Source: a virus | Taxonomy: Duplodnaviria; Heunggongvirae; Uroviricota; Caudoviricetes | Virus record (IMG/VR): IMGVR_UViG_3300042009_000020 | Span: 1-37,779 of that record | Strand: one strand, 5' to 3' | Length of the DNA: 37,779 nucleotides | Shown: positions 4,281-26,028 of the stretch, in pieces | Layout of the letters: the number at the start of each line of letters is the position of its first letter | Numbering within the stretch: the first letter of the stretch is position 1 | Notes under the pieces: generated by a model | Databases searched by the model: none | Seen by the model: only the letters and a program-made list of their open reading frames with translations | Told to the model about the DNA's origin: nothing | Position numbers and translations under genes: made by a program

Positions 4281-4347
4281 ATAAAAGGTTGACACCTTCT
4301 CTAAAAAGACTAGAATGATTAACAGAAGGGAAGCAAACCAGCTTCCC
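4281..4347 (+). promoter_or_regulatory. promoter plus leader hairpin (copy 9)
   Basis: TTGACA 4289-4294, N16, TAGAAT 4311-4316; GGGAAGC-AAACCA-GCTTCCC 4328-4347. Confidence 0.85.
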
Positions 4348-4368
4348 AAATCTTCAAAGGGTATGATC

Positions 4369-4851
4369 ATGAAAGCATTCAACGCCACTCTGCCTATGGG
4401 TTCTGTTGTTGTAGCTATCGACCACAAATATAATGATAACGATGGTGCATACTCGGTTGCATGGGTTTGGGATGGTGAGACGTTAACTTCTGAATCTTAT
4501 GCCAACGGTTATAACAACCGCTCGTTTGAGGATGCTGAAGTTGATGCCTCATTCTTGCAAATTCAAGAAGCGGCTGAAGCCTTCGCAATCGGTAAATTCG
4601 ACCTGTCTAAATCCCACTTCACACAATACAGTACATTCATCGGTTGTACTGTGAAGCTGAAACGCTCTCGCAAGGCGCCAAACAATGTCGAATTGTTGGT
4701 TATGGGTCATGCTGATAGCTACTACGACCACGCCAACAATCGTCGGGTAGACGCTCAAACAGCTGTAAATGTTGAAGGTGTGAAAGTTTGGGTTTCTCAA
4801 GGTTGTGTTAATGAGATTGTCAAAGGTGCCTATCCTTGGTGGAAAGCATAA
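4369..4851 (+). CDS. hypothetical protein
   Basis: Start moved to ATG 4369 because the track start 4315 overlaps the -10 box; AAAGGG RBS. Confidence 0.7.
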   Translation: MKAFNATLPMGSVVVAIDHKYNDNDGAYSVAWVWDGETLTSESYANGYNNRSFEDAEVDASFLQIQEAAEAFAIGKFDLSKSHFTQYSTFIGCTVKLKRSRKAPNNVELLVMGHADSYYDHANNRRVDAQTAVNVEGVKVWVSQGCVNEIVKGAYPWWKA

Positions 4852-4870
4852 GAGTTAGAGAAAATAAGAG

Positions 4871-4892
4871 AGCCCCTTAAATGGGGCTTTTC
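4871..4892 (+). terminator. intrinsic terminator closing the early block
   Basis: AGCCCC-TTAAAT-GGGGCT then TTT. Confidence 0.8.
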
Positions 4893-5420
4893 TATGTATG
4901 TCGCTATTCTATACGAATGTGTCTCAATAACGTCTAGACTGAACTGCCTGTTCAAAGGTATAATGCCTTTATTCCGCCGGTAGCTACCGGCGAAGGCACT
5001 ACTAGAGAGAGCAGGAAAGAGTGGGGATAAACCCCACAAGATAAAGAGTATGTATTAAAGAACTAATATTATAACGTATAACGTTATAGAGTAACTATTG
5101 TTATGTATACATAACAGGCTATCATATCAGATATAAAAGCAGGGTTGTCACCCCTGTTCTCTTCCATTGTATGCGGTAGCATACCCTCTATAACCTCCTG
5201 CAACACCACTCACTGCGTAGCAGTGTAGCACCCCTACTATGGGCATAGCCCATCATATACCTCTTCTCACAAAGCCTTATAGATCATGGCTTATAAGCCA
5301 TAACACATACCGATCATGTCGTAATAACGACATGAATAGAACATATTCACATATATGACTATTCTCGGGTATGCTGAACATTGGGACAATAGTCTAAGCA
5401 TCCATAACTAAACATTCACG

Positions 5421-5436
5421 TGTTCCACGTGGAACA
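5421..5436. promoter_or_regulatory. parS: chromosomal-type parS (ParB-binding) palindrome
   Basis: Perfect 16-bp palindrome TGTTCCACGTGGAACA, matching the parS form known from Pseudomonas; general consensus TGTTNCACGTGAAACA. Confidence 0.8.
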
Positions 5437-5460
5437 ATAGTAATTCTTTTATACATAAAA

Positions 5461-5479
5461 GATAATGATAGCCATTCGT
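5461..5479. promoter_or_regulatory. Fur-box-like site
   Basis: GATAATGATAGCCATTCGT, 14/19 to GATAATGATAATCATTATC. Confidence 0.35.
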
Positions 5480-5687
5480 ATCTACGTCATTCTGACGAAA
5501 GGTAGTGATATAGTTAGACATTCAGCCTAGACAGGCGTAGTATGTGTGTTATGGGTGATGAGTCTGTGCAATGCAGACAGATAGAGCCAGTCACCTAATC
5601 CAAGCCAATCGATAGAGAAAGCCTTCCCGGAGAGTGACAGGGAAGGACCACGAGCTGTACGCATAATAGGTATTATGTTAAATTGCA

Positions 5688-5706
5688 TTGAATGAGAATC
5701 ATTAAC
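5688..5706. promoter_or_regulatory. Fur-box-like site
   Basis: TTGAATGAGAATCATTAAC, 14/19, core AATGAGAATCATT. Confidence 0.4.
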
Positions 5707-5740
5707 ACACCATTCGCAAGGGTAATCAGCTGAATGGATA

Positions 5741-5756
5741 AGCAAGTTGTGTGCCA
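5741..5756 (-). promoter_or_regulatory. sigma54 (-24/-12) consensus site
   Basis: Minus strand TGGCAC-ACAAC-TTGCT matches TGGCAC-N5-TTGCW. Confidence 0.55.
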
Positions 5757-5900
5757 TGTCATAGGGATTCGAGAAAGATATCGACGGGTGGTAGCTCGTG
5801 GAAGTCCGGGGCGTTAAACCCATTTACTCTATATCCAGAGTAATAACCCATTCGATCAATATCTGAGGATTTCAGGTAGTTGAACACCTAACGAATAGGG

Positions 5901-5976
5901 ATTTTTGGGAAGTGGATTTACAGGGAAAAGTGTAAATCAGGGAATTGAAAATACAGGGGAATGGAATTTTGGGTAA
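5901..5976. repeat. ~16-bp periodic GGG(A) array
   Basis: GGG runs start at 5907, 5923, 5940, 5956, 5971; the three central copies read CAGGG(G)AA. Confidence 0.55.
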
Positions 5977-5999
5977 AAAGAAACCCTCCGAAGAGGGTT
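5975..5999 (-). terminator. intrinsic terminator closing the leftward block
   Basis: Minus strand AACCCTC-TTCG-GAGGGTT-TCTTTTT. Confidence 0.85.
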
Positions 6000-6567
6000 A
6001 GTTTGCGAGATTCAGAAGTGCGTCTCGGATTCGAATGTCTGTTTGGATTGCTGCGAGTGATTTGATCGATTGAGCCCTCATATCTTTAATAGCAACCGAT
6101 GCTTCTTCTTTTGTTTTAAACACCGCTGTAATGCGATTATTTGTTTCACCATAAAGAGGAACACTTGCCTGCCAGTTTCCATTTAGTGTAGGGTAGACAC
6201 CTCGAATACCACTACTTGATGGTCGTTGTGTTATAAATGAATTAACTTGACGACTAACGAACAAGCAAATGTCAGGAGAGTAATTCATATTTCCAATTAC
6301 AAGAAGGTCTTTATCCAACTGATTACCTTTCCAGTCCTGTGTTTCCATCCATTGCTTGAAATCACTGAACAAGTGCCATCTAGGATCGACACTACTACCA
6401 ACACGCTTACTGTCTTGCTTGTGGTAAGCTTTTGAGTAACAACGAGCTAGCATGTTCTTCCATTGTTTATAGTAAGGACAACGCCACACTTCCTTACCAT
6501 TGTCCTTGATTGAAACTTGATATGTTGAATCATTAATCCCCACACCATAAACCATCCTACTTTTCAT
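5998..6567 (-). CDS. HNH homing endonuclease with AP2-like C-terminus
   Basis: W..ML.RCY...W..F..F..W...LDKD.L..GN..YSP..C.FV...N pattern, then SSSGIRGVY...W.A. Confidence 0.85.
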   Translation of the reverse strand: MKSRMVYGVGINDSTYQVSIKDNGKEVWRCPYYKQWKNMLARCYSKAYHKQDSKRVGSSVDPRWHLFSDFKQWMETQDWKGNQLDKDLLVIGNMNYSPDICLFVSRQVNSFITQRPSSSGIRGVYPTLNGNWQASVPLYGETNNRITAVFKTKEEASVAIKDMRAQSIKSLAAIQTDIRIRDALLNLAN

Positions 6568-11518: not shown

Positions 11519-12136
11519 TCAGTTAGTTACATCAAACTCTTCGTATACAACCCAACCACCTTCGGTTTCTGGTCCTACATTGTCGATCACATAAGCACCA
11601 GCTTTAAAGTAGAAGGGATAAACGTTCCATCCGCTGTCTACATCGAGCCCATAGTACGATTCATTAATTGTAACATGTAGAACACCATCACTCCCCATTA
11701 CAAGACTGTATTCAAAGGCTTCACCAAGTGCACATGGAACAGACAATACTTTGGTTGTCGGACTAGTGGGTGTAACTCTCAAATCAACCCGTGCAACTCC
11801 GTTCCACCATGTAACCATTAAGAAGGGGTTAGGTGCTTTACTCGCATGAATTTGACCAACAATCACTTTACCACTACTTGGTGCCAATTCAACTCGCACC
11901 TTAGCAAACATTGCATGTAGATAACCATCGGCTGTCCAATTGTACGGTTCACTTGACTCGGGAAGTGTCTGACGACTCTCTGTGCGTGGACTACTACTTG
12001 AACCAGATGTATCACCTTGTACAGAACACCAGTAGTTGGTGTGTCCTTTAGGATCTATCCACACTAAATCAGATGGTGGCTTCTCTGGATACAAATAAAC
12101 TTTCCCATGTGCTGTTATGTTGCCGAAAATGTACAT
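11519..12136 (-). CDS. polysaccharide lyase family 7 (alginate lyase-like)
   Basis: PRTESR, GQIH, YFKAGAY match PL7 motifs RxELR, Q(I/V)H, YFKAGxY. Confidence 0.8.
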   Translation of the reverse strand: MYIFGNITAHGKVYLYPEKPPSDLVWIDPKGHTNYWCSVQGDTSGSSSSPRTESRQTLPESSEPYNWTADGYLHAMFAKVRVELAPSSGKVIVGQIHASKAPNPFLMVTWWNGVARVDLRVTPTSPTTKVLSVPCALGEAFEYSLVMGSDGVLHVTINESYYGLDVDSGWNVYPFYFKAGAYVIDNVGPETEGGWVVYEEFDVTN

Positions 12137-17682: not shown

Positions 17683-19491
17683 TTACACCATCAGTTTTGC
17701 ACGAATCTCATCAAGAGATGTTTGGTTGTAGAAACTACCATCCTTGAATCGAATCTTCAACTCGTTAGAGCTATGTTCCTCAATTTCACGAGTTACATTA
17801 TCAGTCAGAACATAATCACCAAGATCATTCTTACCAACGTACAGCAGCCCTTTTGCTGATTTCTTCTTACTATCGGTCTTTGGATCTTTGAAGATGGCAA
17901 TGTCCTTACCATTTACCTTGGTGTAAGTTGCCTTAACAGCGAATCCGAATGTATCACGTGTCACACACTGATAAGTGTAAGAACCCACACCAAACATTGC
18001 ATTACCAGAAGCATAACCCTTGTCAAACAGGCGCTCAAGGATTGTTTGGCAACGATTGGTAGTAATCGAGTCACCATAGATCAGACCAATGTGATCGTCC
18101 AGCAGTTTGTGACCTGTAGAAGTCTCAGTGTATCCGAAGATTTCCATCAATACTTCTACGGCACCCTTCTGTTCTACACTCAAATCAATTTCACGTGCGT
18201 ACCAACCATCAAGGTCTTTACTGTTGTAATATCGACTATGGTAACACTCACCCTCAATCACAACAATAACACCATCAGAGGTTCTACCGTAAAAGGATAA
18301 TTCATCACCACCTTCAACTTTATTAGCATATTCAGAACCAATATCTACAATAGAATCAGTAGCATCATCAGACTGTTCATCCAATTCGACAAAGGTGTGA
18401 GGAATATCATGAATCTTAACACCACACAGAACTTCTACTGGATCACCTGAATCTGGACGAATTACCAATCGTCCGGGAGTTACACCATTTGATTGACGAC
18501 GCATAATTACATCTTTCAGATATGGTAGACCACGAGAAATCAAACCGTAGAAGTCAAAGCTATCAGCGACATACGACAGGATACCAACCGGGAACTTCAG
18601 CATCAGTTCATACATGAACATGATTTCAGCAATCAGTCGATCATCTTCTTTTGCGTTAGACATCTTGTTGAAAATGTCGAATTGTTCATCATTTGAAAAC
18701 TCGTAAACACCATCGTACAACTCTTGCTCAATTCGCAGAATGTTACTTGTGCTTACAGCGTGCTCAGTTGCTGGAACAGAACAAGCAACAAAGTCACCAG
18801 CACGGTAATACTGTTGAGCGTACAACACAGTACCAAGTGAGTCACTACCCAAGAAACTACCAACGTGACCGAAACCACTACGTGCAGCGTCTTCAAAACC
18901 AGACATACCACGGTCAGCAAAACAGTGAGACTGAATGTTAACAACTTCCAAAGGAGTACCTGTACGAATCGCATAGTCCGTCAACATTGCACGGTATTCA
19001 GCAGCGATAGTTGCTGTAGTCGAAGGTTTCCAAGTGAGGTTACTGATTACAGTTTCGAGGAAGTTAACCAACCAGAAAGCGTGGTCAACAGTGTTGCGAA
19101 TTGTCAACACTGGAATTCCCATATTTACTTTGGTGCCTTCTTTCAGGGTACGGATTTCCAGCGGCAAGTAACCAAGATCGTGCAGTTTAGCAAGACGGTC
19201 AGTTGTAATAACTGGGTAACCGAAGTATGAATCACACAGAAGTTTGAAACGAGCGAGTGCAATACCCTTGTCCATCTCGAAGAAATCATCCCACATTTCA
19301 ACGATTTCAGCAATAGCGCCTTGGTGACCGATAACAACCAACTTACCATCGTAATACTTGGTGCACGAGCGACGATAGATACTATCTGAACGTGGTGTCA
19401 GGTTGGAAGATACTACTTCCGTACCTTCAGCATACATATCTGGGTGACCAAGTTTGTATCCATCTGACAGAAAAGCTGCGAACAATTTCAT
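17683..19491 (-). CDS. nicotinamide phosphoribosyltransferase-like protein (probable NARP1 Namat)
   Basis: SDGYKLGH, ADRG, SVPATEH, RPDSG, GLIYGDSI, KDPKTD..KKSAKG. Confidence 0.9.
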   Translation of the reverse strand: MKLFAAFLSDGYKLGHPDMYAEGTEVVSSNLTPRSDSIYRRSCTKYYDGKLVVIGHQGAIAEIVEMWDDFFEMDKGIALARFKLLCDSYFGYPVITTDRLAKLHDLGYLPLEIRTLKEGTKVNMGIPVLTIRNTVDHAFWLVNFLETVISNLTWKPSTTATIAAEYRAMLTDYAIRTGTPLEVVNIQSHCFADRGMSGFEDAARSGFGHVGSFLGSDSLGTVLYAQQYYRAGDFVACSVPATEHAVSTSNILRIEQELYDGVYEFSNDEQFDIFNKMSNAKEDDRLIAEIMFMYELMLKFPVGILSYVADSFDFYGLISRGLPYLKDVIMRRQSNGVTPGRLVIRPDSGDPVEVLCGVKIHDIPHTFVELDEQSDDATDSIVDIGSEYANKVEGGDELSFYGRTSDGVIVVIEGECYHSRYYNSKDLDGWYAREIDLSVEQKGAVEVLMEIFGYTETSTGHKLLDDHIGLIYGDSITTNRCQTILERLFDKGYASGNAMFGVGSYTYQCVTRDTFGFAVKATYTKVNGKDIAIFKDPKTDSKKKSAKGLLYVGKNDLGDYVLTDNVTREIEEHSSNELKIRFKDGSFYNQTSLDEIRAKLMV

Positions 19492-20368: not shown

Positions 20369-20586
20369 TATACAGCCTCAAATTCAGATTTATCTTCATT
20401 CTCGTAGATGTACCAATAGTCACTACCGTCTAGTTTTTCAGCACGATATTCATCAAATACACCATCTTCATCTTCGTAGTTACCATAATGTATTTCAGTA
20501 ATTCTCACAAGCTCACCATCCTCAAACCGATGACCGTTGAAAGAATCAATAATTTTCACAATCTGTCCAACTTCATACTTAACCAT
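20368..20586 (-). CDS. hypothetical protein
   Basis: Start at MVKYEVG (20586) with AAGGAG RBS. Confidence 0.65.
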   Translation of the reverse strand: MVKYEVGQIVKIIDSFNGHRFEDGELVRITEIHYGNYEDEDGVFDEYRAEKLDGSDYWYIYENEDKSEFEAV

Positions 20587-20596
20587 TCTGTTCTCC

Positions 20597-21475
20597 TTAA
20601 AATTCAATGTACGGATCAGCAACTGCAATGACATTTTTGATCTTGAGTTCATGCCACAACCGAATCATCTGAGGTCGGTCATCAACACAGGCAACAATGT
20701 TATACCTATGTGCGAGATGTGTCCAGAAGATTTCTTCCTTCACAGCATTATCTTTTCGGAAATCACCATTCTTACGCATATGCAAAGCGTGCCAGAACAT
20801 ACTACCGACATGTTCGTCAAGCCATTTTGATGTTTCACCCACACAAACATCGTCTCGACCTGAACAGATGATGATAATATAACCCATCATTGCATAATTA
20901 CGCAACATCTGAATTACGAATTCGCGTGGTTTATCCTCACCTACACGCTTCCATTCGAAAGGACCACGACCATCCATCTGAGCGATAGTGCCGTCAACAT
21001 CAAAGATTACAGCTTTAGGAAGAGATTCATCTGCAACATAAGTAACTCGACCAACATAATCATTCCAGTCTTTGAACTGGCGATAAATAACACCCTCACC
21101 AACACCATTTGGTCGCAGACGATCACGCTTGTAAGCTGTTTCCTGTGCTACATGAAACTCTTTGATTTCAACAACATAGCCAAGGTTCTCAAGCTTTTCG
21201 ATAAGCCCATGACGCCTTCCGAAATTCAAGTTGGTATCACTGATTACAATATTCTCTTCACGAGCCCAACTTTCCATGATCATCTGTTCATGAACGCGAG
21301 AAACTTCTTTCTCGTTCTTACCATTGAACTTGTAGTTACTCCAGTTTGAACCCGGACATACGATATTGAATCGTATGTAATCCCGGTTAATATCACGGAA
21401 ACCTTGCTTTACAAGTTCATTTGCAAAAGTAGTCTTACCTGATGCACTTACACCAATTGTAATTACAGCCTTCAA
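20597..21475 (-). CDS. pnk: polynucleotide 5'-kinase/3'-phosphatase (T4 PseT-like)
   Basis: GVSASGKTT P-loop, RD, HAD motif FDVDGT, DDR; TTG start. Confidence 0.92.
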   Translation of the reverse strand: MKAVITIGVSASGKTTFANELVKQGFRDINRDYIRFNIVCPGSNWSNYKFNGKNEKEVSRVHEQMIMESWAREENIVISDTNLNFGRRHGLIEKLENLGYVVEIKEFHVAQETAYKRDRLRPNGVGEGVIYRQFKDWNDYVGRVTYVADESLPKAVIFDVDGTIAQMDGRGPFEWKRVGEDKPREFVIQMLRNYAMMGYIIIICSGRDDVCVGETSKWLDEHVGSMFWHALHMRKNGDFRKDNAVKEEIFWTHLAHRYNIVACVDDRPQMIRLWHELKIKNVIAVADPYIEF

Positions 21476-24598: not shown

Positions 24599-24673
24599 GC
24601 GTGATTAGTGTAATTGGTAACACTTCTGACTTCCAATCAGACATTAAGAGTTCAAGTCTCTTATCCCGCCCCA
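24599..24673 (+). tRNA. tRNA-Gly(TCC)
   Basis: TCTGA-CTTCCAA-TCAGA, GTTCAAG, 3' CCA; one acceptor mismatch, C discriminator. Confidence 0.75.
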
Positions 24674-24777
24674 AGTTATAAAGAATCTACTAAGACCGTG
24701 TAGTGAGCGTGTCCGAACTGATCCCACGTTACCGAGATTATGTGGCTAGGCACATGTCAACTCTCTAGCAGAATTAT

Positions 24778-24864
24778 TGGCGAGTAAGCATAACTGGCAC
24801 TGCACTCCGCTGTTAACGGAGCTTCCGAAAGGTCTTGTTGATTCGAATTCAACCTCGCCAGCCA
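24778..24864 (+). tRNA. tRNA-Asn(GTT) with extra variable arm
   Basis: TGGCGAG/CTCGCCA, CTCCG-CTGTTAA-CGGAG, GTTGA-TTCGAAT-TCAAC, CCA; 87 nt. Confidence 0.8.
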
Positions 24865-24870
24865 ATCAAT

Positions 24871-24991
24871 GCGATCTAGTGAGACATGATACGTTAACGG
24901 TTCGAAACGGAAGCGTGAATTGTTTTAGGAATTAACTCACGAAGGACTTCTTTAGCGGGAAGTTATACAGGTTCGACTCCTGTGGATCGCA
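24871..24991 (+). ncRNA. expanded tRNA-like element
   Basis: Acceptor GCGATCT/GGATCGC and T-arm ACAGG-TTCGACT-CCTGT intact; interior enlarged; no encoded CCA. Confidence 0.55.
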
Positions 24992-25023
24992 CAGTTTCGT
25001 TGTAAACAAAAGAGGAGTTGTAA

Positions 25024-25149
25024 ATGACTAAGTTTTACGATGCAACAGCAGAACACAAGATGATCGAGAAGAGCAAAGAGAAATCGAAAGGTCATCCAAA
25101 CAAAGGTTTGAAAGGTAAGAATCCTTATTCTGGTAAGGTTGTTTCCTAA
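25024..25149 (+). CDS. small Lys-rich peptide within tRNA cluster (41 aa)
   Basis: GAGGAG RBS; MTKFYDATAEHKMIEKSKEKSKGHPNKGLKGKNPYSGKVVS. Confidence 0.55.
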   Translation: MTKFYDATAEHKMIEKSKEKSKGHPNKGLKGKNPYSGKVVS

Positions 25150-25156
25150 GTTATAT

Positions 25157-25232
25157 AGTCCTGTCGTATAGAGGTTATTACACTCGCCTGTCACGCGAGA
25201 GAGGAGGGTTCGATGTCCCTTCAGGACTGCCA
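25157..25232 (+). tRNA. tRNA-Asp(GTC)
   Basis: AGTCCTG/CAGGACT, CTCGC-CTGTCAC-GCGAG, GTTCGATG, CCA. Confidence 0.88.
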
Positions 25233-25353
25233 ATTTAACAACACAGACTGTTGATTCGAAAAGCCGCATATTATGCGATCAGGTTAAAATGTGTTGTGTA
25301 AAAACGCGCTGCATCCTCTGGTATCGACTAGTTTGGTATTACGTTACAGCCAT

Positions 25354-25429
25354 GCCGGTTTAGCTCAGATGGTAGAGCAATTCACTTGTAATGAAAAGGT
25401 CGCGAGTTCGATTCTTGCAACCGGCACCA
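25354..25429 (+). tRNA. tRNA-Thr(TGT)
   Basis: GCCGGTT/AACCGGC, TAGCTCAGATGGTAGAGC, CTTGTAA loop, GTTCGATT, CCA. Confidence 0.92.
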
Positions 25430-25481
25430 AATTCGTAGAAAGGCTATTTGGTCTAAACCAACAATAGCGAACGGGGTATAC

Positions 25482-25532
25482 GCCCCATTATGTGAGATAA
25501 CATTACTGTGGGTTCAACTCCCACACGGGGCT
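25482..25532 (+). pseudogene. tRNA remnant (acceptor plus T-arm minihelix)
   Basis: GCCCCAT/ACGGGGC and GTGGG-TTCAACT-CCCAC joined by a short linker without anticodon arm. Confidence 0.45.
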
Positions 25533-25657
25533 GGTCCTCGTATCGATGGGAAGTAATGGTAAACTCAACAGGTATTCAACTCTCGATACTAGTCAGACTG
25601 TTGTTTACCGGATCTAATTCAAACAGGCTTGAGTGTATCGTCTGTTAAATGCAACAT

Positions 25658-25734
25658 GGTCTATATAGCTTAACCGGGAAAGCGCCGTGACAATATTAAA
25701 CTCGGAGTAGAGTTCGAATCCTCGCAGACCACCA
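25658..25734 (+). tRNA. tRNA-like element with non-canonical 11-nt anticodon loop
   Basis: GGTCTAT/GCAGACC, D arm GCTT/AAGC, CCGTG-ACAATATTAAA-CTCGG, GTTCGAATC, ACCA. Confidence 0.55.
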
Positions 25735-25748
25735 ATTATAAAAAAATA

Positions 25749-25824
25749 CAGAGCGTAGCGAAAGAGGTTATCGTCCCGGTTTGGAACTGGGTACACGTCC
25801 GTTCGACCCGGACCGCTCTGACCA
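25749..25824 (+). tRNA. tRNA-Pro(TGG)
   Basis: CAGAGCG/CGCTCTG, CCCGG-TTTGGAA-CTGGG, GTCCG-TTCGACC-CGGAC, ACCA. Confidence 0.9.
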
Positions 25825-25830
25825 AATTAT

Positions 25831-25931
25831 CTGGAAGTGCTAATATATCAAACTGAGGGTCATGAACTTCAGCAAGACGAAAAGGCTTTAGCAGGATGGC
25901 CATCCTTGGGGTTCGAGTCCTCACTTCTGGT
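25831..25931 (+). ncRNA. expanded tRNA-like element
   Basis: Acceptor CTGGAAG/CTTCTGG, T-arm TGGGG-TTCGAGT-CCTCA; enlarged interior; ends CCG, not CCA. Confidence 0.5.
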
Positions 25932-25940
25932 CCGAACAAT

Positions 25941-26028
25941 GGATAGTTGGCTGAGTGGTTGAAAGCACTGGTCTTGAAAATCAGCAGTCGGAAACGGCTC
26001 GTGAGTTCGAAACTCACACTATCCTCCA
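25941..26028 (+). tRNA. tRNA-Ser(TGA)
   Basis: GGATAGT/ACTATCC, CTGGT-CTTGAAA-ATCAG, long variable arm, GTTCGAAA, CCA. Confidence 0.92.

Follow-up and report, generated by a model that had tools for sequence, protein, structure and literature searches.

The locus and its two parS sites

We analysed a window of 37,779 nt. It covers the first 37.8 kb of a phage record that is complete at 107,314 bp, with a terminal overlap of 127 bp and a GC content of 42.7%. The plus-strand early block ends in this window with a 178-aa ORF that belongs to no Pfam family (4315-4851, + strand) and is followed by terminator-like hairpins. An interval of 1.1 kb then extends from the end of this ORF at 4851 to the end of a minus-strand gene at 5998. 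It contains a sigma-70-type promoter (4935-4964, +; TAGACT-18-TATAAT), recognized by promoter scan and by its conservation in alignments. This promoter heads a conserved element of about 1 kb (4965-5995, +), which we regard as a candidate large structured RNA. Positions 5982-5999 form a bidirectional terminator hairpin. The minus-strand gene (5998-6567, -; 189 aa) abuts the element as the last gene of a convergent module and is kept in three relatives (SYP, as gp220, G009 and G011). Its product gives a weak FLYWCH-type zinc-finger hint (E 0.005, below the cut-off). The same module encodes an alginate-lyase-domain protein (PF08787, E 2e-30; 11519-12136, -), a NAPRTase-family protein of NAD salvage (17683-19491, -), a DNA ligase and a metallophosphatase. 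Six tRNA genes are found at 24599-26028.

A perfect chromosomal-type parS site, which we call site B, lies in the element at 5421-5436 (16/16 bases, assigned to neither strand). As an earlier sequence-only reading of this DNA had noted, TGTTCCACGTGGAACA occurs in the window as an exact copy. It does so once, and no other stretch of the window matches it even when three mismatches are allowed. Base composition predicts 7e-6 exact copies per window and 2e-5 per whole genome, which bears out the view that the 16-mer is not a product of chance. A shuffle figure of 0.27 counts matches with up to three mismatches and says nothing about the rarity of the exact site. Site B is located at a turning point of the GC skew, where the transcribed strand also switches. 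Examination of 4700-6200 for iterons or other repeats gave nothing convincing.

The complete genome contains a partner site, site A (TGTTCCACGTGAAACA; G000:106902-106917, outside the window), about 5.7 kb from site B across the assembly/circular junction. Compared with the 16-bp parS palindrome (tGTTNCACGTGAAACa / TGTTCCACGTGGAACA), the sequence at 5421 matches at 16/16 bases and the one at G000:106902 at 15/16, with one mismatch. Apart from these two sites, nothing in the whole genome has fewer than four mismatches to parS. Sites with at most one mismatch are expected 1e-3 times per genome, against the two observed, and the Poisson probability of two or more is ~6e-7. Site A lies immediately 3' of the TAA stop codon of a 73-aa early ORF and 5' of a hairpin and the next early promoter.

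Conservation and turnover of the sites in related phages

Over its structural genes, the phage shares 74% DNA identity with Pseudomonas phage vB_PpS_SYP (SYP), which infects P. plecoglossicida, and 71% with phiPMW (genus Plaisancevirus), which infects P. putida PpG1. Both are virulent phages in culture. SYP forms clear plaques, with a latent period of 20 min and a burst of 178 (PMC10580904). We searched for conserved parS sites in 14 related near-complete genomes, made up of eleven IMG/VR relatives found through their capsid protein, the present genome, SYP and phiPMW. Canonical parS-type sites, from one to six each, are present in 10 of the 14, and phiPMW has three core-variant sites. Among the eleven IMG/VR relatives, eight have one to three clustered sites and three (G009, G011 and G012) have none. 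An additional two-mismatch match far from the cluster in both G004 and G006 is probably spurious. SYP carries six sites within 7.7 kb, of which three are perfect, two have one mismatch and one has two. The three phiPMW sites, spread over 5.3 kb, all read TGTTCCACATGGAACA.

The sites occupy the same place in every genome that has them. In all 11, they fall within one syntenic interval of 1-8 kb at the end of the early region, bounded by a homolog of the early gene at G000:105473-105736 and by the convergent minus-strand module. The combined probability of this clustering is ~1e-20. Positional counterparts of site A are found at SYP 4266 and phiPMW 15422, and those of site B at SYP 107116/294/963 and phiPMW 20515/20735. 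In the two annotated genomes, every site with at most one mismatch is intergenic. The flanks of the sites cannot be aligned, and only the 16-mer is common to them. Even among close relatives the positions differ, always within the same locus. This turnover points to selection for the presence of a site and not for its exact position. The three site-less genomes show that parS sites can be given up, so their function is dispensable or conditional.

We also noted a recurring arrangement around site A. In G000:106680-107010 (outside the window), an early stop codon is followed by parS, a GC-rich hairpin and the next early promoter. The same order recurs at SYP 963 and 7655 and at the G002/G003 sites, which suggests that parS may travel with the boundaries of early-gene cassettes.

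Sequence specificity and the probable cost of the CACGTG core

The identity of the 16-mer is that first proposed, the parS form of Pseudomonas chromosomes. TGTTCCACGTGGAACA is the sequence of P. aeruginosa parS2/parS3, the sites of highest affinity for ParB (PMC4368675), and is the parS listed for P. putida (PMC7022226). The 29 sites from 11 genomes provide 58 half-sites in which GTT and CA are invariant. Position 5 is C in 41 half-sites and T in 17, and Pseudomonas ParB is reported to bind both resulting forms, GTTCCAC and GTTTCAC (PMC7022226). Position 1 is variable but mostly T, and position 8 deviates in phiPMW only. Judged from these half-sites, the degeneracy of the phage sites is that of bacterial parS, with variation only where bacterial parS varies. 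Half-parS words (GTTCCAC/GTTTCAC) seemed to be enriched, with a 2-fold excess over base composition, but this excess vanished against a Markov expectation, the reversed word and 7-mers of the same composition, and we discarded it.

Across IMG/VR contigs, parS was found in at least 120, compared with 3 for a composition-matched control palindrome. An exact parS also occurs in fourteen other large IMG/VR contigs of 54-351 kb, five of which are complete, and none of the fourteen has a ParB_N match in six frames. Two of these 14 have two perfect sites, which in G019 are 500 bp apart.

The CACGTG hexamer forms the core of the site, and its genome-wide count differs between relatives. The present genome, SYP and the eight site-bearing IMG/VR relatives contain 8-52 copies of CACGTG and keep canonical parS. 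phiPMW has 0 copies in 103 kb, and each of its three sites has a core-only change. CACGTG is also absent from G009 (0 copies) and present twice in both G011 and G012, and none of these three has parS. Many 6-bp palindromes are depleted in all genomes that we examined; in the present one, 19 of the 64 occur at most once. These counts point to a strong, host-specific restriction pressure, and CACGTG was presumably purged from the latter four genomes to avoid restriction.

The phiPMW sites are informative in this respect. We considered a shifted binding specificity in this phage and rejected it, because the loss of CACGTG from the entire genome accounts for the core change. At all three sites, 15/16 bases are retained and one core base is altered. 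So small a change at 3/3 sites speaks for a benefit in keeping them. ParB affinity is influenced by the CACGTG core, and P. aeruginosa ParB binds natural sites with a changed core more weakly (PMC4368675); the phiPMW variant therefore probably binds ParB more weakly as well.

Absence of partition and lysogeny genes

Six-frame searches of the whole genome with the ParB_N, HTH_ParB, TIGR00180, AAA_31 and CbiA profiles gave zero matches at E<=1, and the control genomes all gave matches in these ParB/ParA searches. The lack of parA and parB reported for the window thus extends to the entire phage, including the search for a phage parB that had been called for. No parAB operon is linked to the sites on the same replicon, and the phage parS sites are therefore orphan. 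We also found no integrase in the 107-kb genome. Together with the clear plaques of its relative SYP, this agrees with the description of an apparently lytic phage, and by these profile searches the genome as a whole is lytic-type and without parAB. It combines three features of the phi29 type: host-type parS, no ParB of its own and no lysogeny genes.

We compared ORFs across the relatives for a possible phage-encoded partner and found no gene that tracks the presence of parS sites. One early ORF of 62 aa (2286-2474) is the sole early ORF that is common to SYP and phiPMW and absent from G009, G011 and G012. We rejected it as a parS partner since it is missing from six site-bearing genomes. The 62-aa protein (2286-2474, +) is acidic, is encoded between both sites, has a patchy distribution and no known function. 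Its identity of 74% to phiPMW and 85% to G001 is unusually high for the early region. A second candidate was the product of SYP gp20 (L012:7671-9125, -), a 484-aa DndB-family protein (PF14072, E 4e-32) annotated as a DNA sulfur modification protein, whose gene end directly adjoins a parS site. It has no homolog in the present genome and was rejected as well. Because no phage gene tracks the sites, host ParB would be the parsimonious binder.

A conserved structured element around site B

Site B was initially described as lying in non-coding DNA. That holds in so far as no plus-strand ORF of at least 40 aa spans 5421 or lies anywhere in the element, but the site sits in a variable hairpin of a conserved candidate RNA gene. 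The element shares ~74% identity over roughly 1 kb with G001-G003, and its promoter reads TTGACA-17-TATAAT in G002/G003. It abounds in hairpins, and the alignments show their arms to covary. RNAalifold applied to seven sequences predicted 119 pairs, 33 of them with compensatory changes and long-range helices among them, with a fold energy of -87 kcal/mol compared with -4 +/- 3 kcal/mol for column shuffles, and with more G-U pairs on the plus strand. Across twelve homologs, 86% of cells held canonical pairs, against 37-53% in slid controls. A profile of the element matched SYP, phiPMW, G009, G010 and G011, and so also the parS-less G009 and G011. The element is found in nearly all phiPMW-like phages.

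We found no match to the element in Rfam at E<=0.1. A known RNA family could be discarded, since matches at E<=5 were at chance level only, such as one to RsmY at 16.8 bits against a threshold of 57 bits; the chance-level RsmY match lies in the relative G003 (L204:1112-1201). These comparisons make the element a candidate for a new large structured phage RNA without an Rfam family.

Several other properties of the element were recorded. Four of the five perfect 14-bp palindromes in the genome fall in it. Its 3' tail (5896-5985, +) has seven GGA motifs in 90 nt before the terminator and ties for the densest such window in the genome. We tested this tail as an RsmA/CsrA sponge and set the idea aside as a weak lead, since the tail was not top-ranked in SYP, phiPMW, G009 or G011. 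In phiPMW, the three annotated tiny ORFs PMW_59 to PMW_61 (L013:8315-8853) fall within the match to the element profile (20446-21242), and by this overlap they may not be genes.

The position of parS relative to the element varies. A variable segment (5395-5520, neither strand) holds parS in the present genome, G001 and G004 and unrelated sequence in G002/G003, and G008 has its group-B site in another variable hairpin segment. The consensus fold of 12 homologs places a hairpin at 5420-5435 of the present genome, with compensatory changes at all five pairs. In G002, G003, G005 and G010, and for one SYP site, group-B sites lie 110-270 bp upstream of the element promoter. Two sites in SYP and two in phiPMW are inside the element. 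The simplest reason why a site moves between relatives yet stays in the locus would be that only some places, the variable hairpins and the intergenic gaps, tolerate a 16-bp palindrome. ParB and the element transcript may be functionally linked.

Host ParB as the likely binder and its possible purpose

Genome comparisons show clustered, syntenic sites that are selected as ParB-type sites in a phage without ParB or ParA. The best reading of sites A and B is that they are functional, selected, orphan copies of the host chromosome centromere. The sequence-only reading had proposed that the phage borrows host ParB. The second site, the conservation and synteny, the ParB-like degeneracy and the retention of the sites under restriction pressure all strengthen this proposal, which is now the best-supported reading of the sequences; the four purposes that it listed came without evidence to choose among them. 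We consider it highly probable that host ParB binds and loads on the phage parS sites. Given such binding, positioning or segregation of the phage genome is a tentative assignment of purpose that we would put a little short of even. The complete statement, in which host ParB loads and serves positioning or segregation, deserves about the same tentative standing when rounded, and a somewhat lower one when the odds of its two components are multiplied.

The mechanism we envisage begins when phage DNA enters the cell and host ParB dimers recognize its parS sites. ParB would then close as CTP-dependent clamps and spread over a few kb at the end of the early region, and a partition-type ParB complex would form on the phage DNA. 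The host ParA gradient, possibly with SMC, could handle the phage genome like the chromosomal origin region. The likeliest benefit would be that phage genomes are positioned or segregated with host origin domains during slow or stalled infection, such as in stationary-phase cells or in a carrier or pseudolysogenic state. It would correspond, in a host that does not sporulate, to the Spo0J-dependent passage of phi29 into the spore.

We favor positioning or segregation because the sites cluster in a centromere-like manner, belong to the top-affinity class needed for clamp loading and occupy a fixed region. The precedent of phi29 and the need of P. putida for ParAB at stationary-phase entry, the stage at which its par mutants mainly fail (PMC7022226), also favor it. 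Some considerations speak against this purpose. SYP lyses its host so briskly that partition would seem of little use in standard culture, transcription from the conserved and apparently strong promoter upstream of site B may evict ParB, and a single genome that does not replicate reaches one daughter cell only.

An alternative purpose is that the sites act as a ParB sink. Through centromere incompatibility, hundreds of phage parS copies would strip ParB from the four origin-proximal host sites and, as a form of host takeover, disturb chromosome segregation and ParB-dependent regulation. The sites belong to the highest-affinity class, and 2-6 sites per genome multiplied by a burst of ~178 would give a large excess over the few host parS. 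Orphan parS of the genomic island SGI1 are known to destabilize its helper plasmid (PMC10954446). Titration, however, needs neither clustering nor a fixed place, and the confinement of the sites to one 1-8 kb interval in 11/11 genomes weakens pure titration. Most genomes have only 2-3 sites, and mis-segregation of the host gains little within a 20-min lytic cycle. We regard a sink as unlikely, at something under one-fifth of the weight.

Local regulation seems a shade less likely still. ParB bound at the sites would silence or insulate the early genes and the structured-RNA gene according to host ParB level or growth state. Group-B sites are always inside the promoter-driven element or 110-270 bp upstream of its promoter, group-A sites separate early cassettes, with a stop codon before parS and a hairpin and the next promoter after it, and plasmids that carry parS are not maintained when ParB is in excess (PMC4368675). 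Yet the placement relative to promoters varies, from upstream of them to inside the transcript to after stop codons, and the element is equally conserved in the parS-less G009 and G011. Hairpins and intergenic gaps may also be the sole spots that tolerate a 16-bp palindrome.

We give a low probability to the idea that the sites load SMC or a ParB coat, which would organize or individualize phage genomes during replication or change how SMC-like defences recognize them. In several bacteria SMC is recruited by ParB-parS complexes (PMC7022226), and a clustered arrangement would fit a loading platform. The sequence, though, has nothing that concerns SMC or defence systems, and no condensin-related or anti-defence phage gene tracks the sites.

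It is very improbable that the sites are operators of an unrecognized phage DNA-binding protein that shares the specificity of ParB. Many early genes are without known function, and the single core change common to the three phiPMW sites could hint at a shifted specificity. Against this, the loss of CACGTG explains the phiPMW change, no ParB-like domain was found in six frames, and the degeneracy of the sites is exactly that of bacterial parS. No ORF tracks the sites, the 62-aa candidate being missing from six site-bearing genomes and the SYP DndB-like protein having no homolog here.

Finally, an origin without any role for ParB, as a chance palindrome, an RNA hairpin or captured or chimeric host oriC DNA, is refuted by the comparative data and has next to no weight: parS-less homologs do hold another hairpin at the same alignment position, but a need for a hairpin does not specify a 16-mer that recurs at 29 sites in 11 genomes and in at least 120 IMG/VR contigs against 3 for the control palindrome, and host capture or an assembly chimera, which the sequence-only reading had raised against itself, is excluded by a local GC of 0.40 around site B compared with ~0.62 for the host, by flanks of phage DNA conserved in relatives and by the same class of site in cultured phages.

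Comparison with known systems and significance

Loading of host ParB on the phage sites would not be a new principle, given phi29 and SGI1, and the suggestion that such an arrangement had not been described must be narrowed. According to PMC2731898, parS sites for host Spo0J are present in phi29 and Nf, two virulent Bacillus phages, and the five host parS of phi29 are used through Spo0J for entrapment of its genome in the spore (Meijer et al. 2005, cited there). Like phi29 and Nf, the present phage has several host chromosomal parS, is of the lytic class and lacks its own ParB. In those phages the genome is handled by the host partition protein, as we infer here. The function in phi29 is tied to sporulation and works with Spo0A boxes, host-regulator sites that suspend the lytic cycle. 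The present phage also differs from phi29 as a 107-kb tailed phage without a terminal protein, whose probable ParB-binding sites are clustered at the end of the early region.

Pseudomonas forms no spores. The spore route therefore cannot apply, and any role in segregation must take another form.

A second precedent is SGI1, a genomic island whose orphan parS copies hijack the ParABS system of its IncC helper plasmid (PMC10954446). Both are mobile elements with centromere copies and without ParAB, and SGI1 uses the partition proteins of another replicon. Unlike our phage, SGI1 borrows from a plasmid and not from a chromosome, has a different parS family, and is a replicating island that gains stable inheritance while expelling the helper plasmid. 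The phage sites also resemble the parS1-4 cluster of P. aeruginosa and the three parS of P. putida in the identical 16-mer, the tolerated variants and the clustering within a few kb (PMC4368675; PMC7022226). The chromosomal sites are neighbours of oriC and the parAB operon and pass on by vertical inheritance, whereas those of the phage are orphan and shift position between relatives.

Self-encoded partition cassettes form a separate class. The phage-plasmids P1 (parABS) and N15 (sopAB) have such cassettes. So do cluster-A mycobacteriophages, with parABS (PMC7157519). The genomes of these phages also carry centromere sites for active partition. Unlike the phage studied here, they are temperate plasmid prophages with their own ParA and ParB and private centromere sequences.

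In the literature, we found no hijacking of host ParB for Pseudomonas phages or for other non-Bacillus lytic phages or non-sporulating hosts, which leaves this part of the novelty claim intact. The phiPMW and SYP papers (SYP: PMC10580904) do not mention parS sites. Three aspects are new here: the sites are traded off against restriction, their positions turn over, and they are associated with a conserved element that is a candidate structured RNA.

A broader statement can be made with considerable reserve, and as a whole we consider it doubtful. Orphan host parS could be a general device by which virulent phages of non-sporulating bacteria plug their genome into host ParABS, so that it would be positioned and inherited during slow or stalled infection. 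Restriction enzymes that cleave CACGTG in the core would set a price on the device, which in this phage group would be physically coupled to a conserved structured RNA gene of ~1 kb.

If host ParB is indeed borrowed, virulent Pseudomonas phages would hold a built-in handle on the chromosome-segregation machinery of their host, and the phi29 principle would reach beyond spore formers. The conflict over CACGTG amounts to a natural experiment, and a clean one, on what parS sites cost and what they bring, and the structured element that hosts site B may be a new large phage RNA. Cultured and genetically tractable pairs are available in phiPMW with P. putida PpG1 and SYP with P. plecoglossicida. 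The parS sites would then be a concrete cis-element, open to mutation, with which to study the persistence of lytic phages in cells that grow slowly or not at all, with a bearing on carrier states and on the outcomes of phage therapy.
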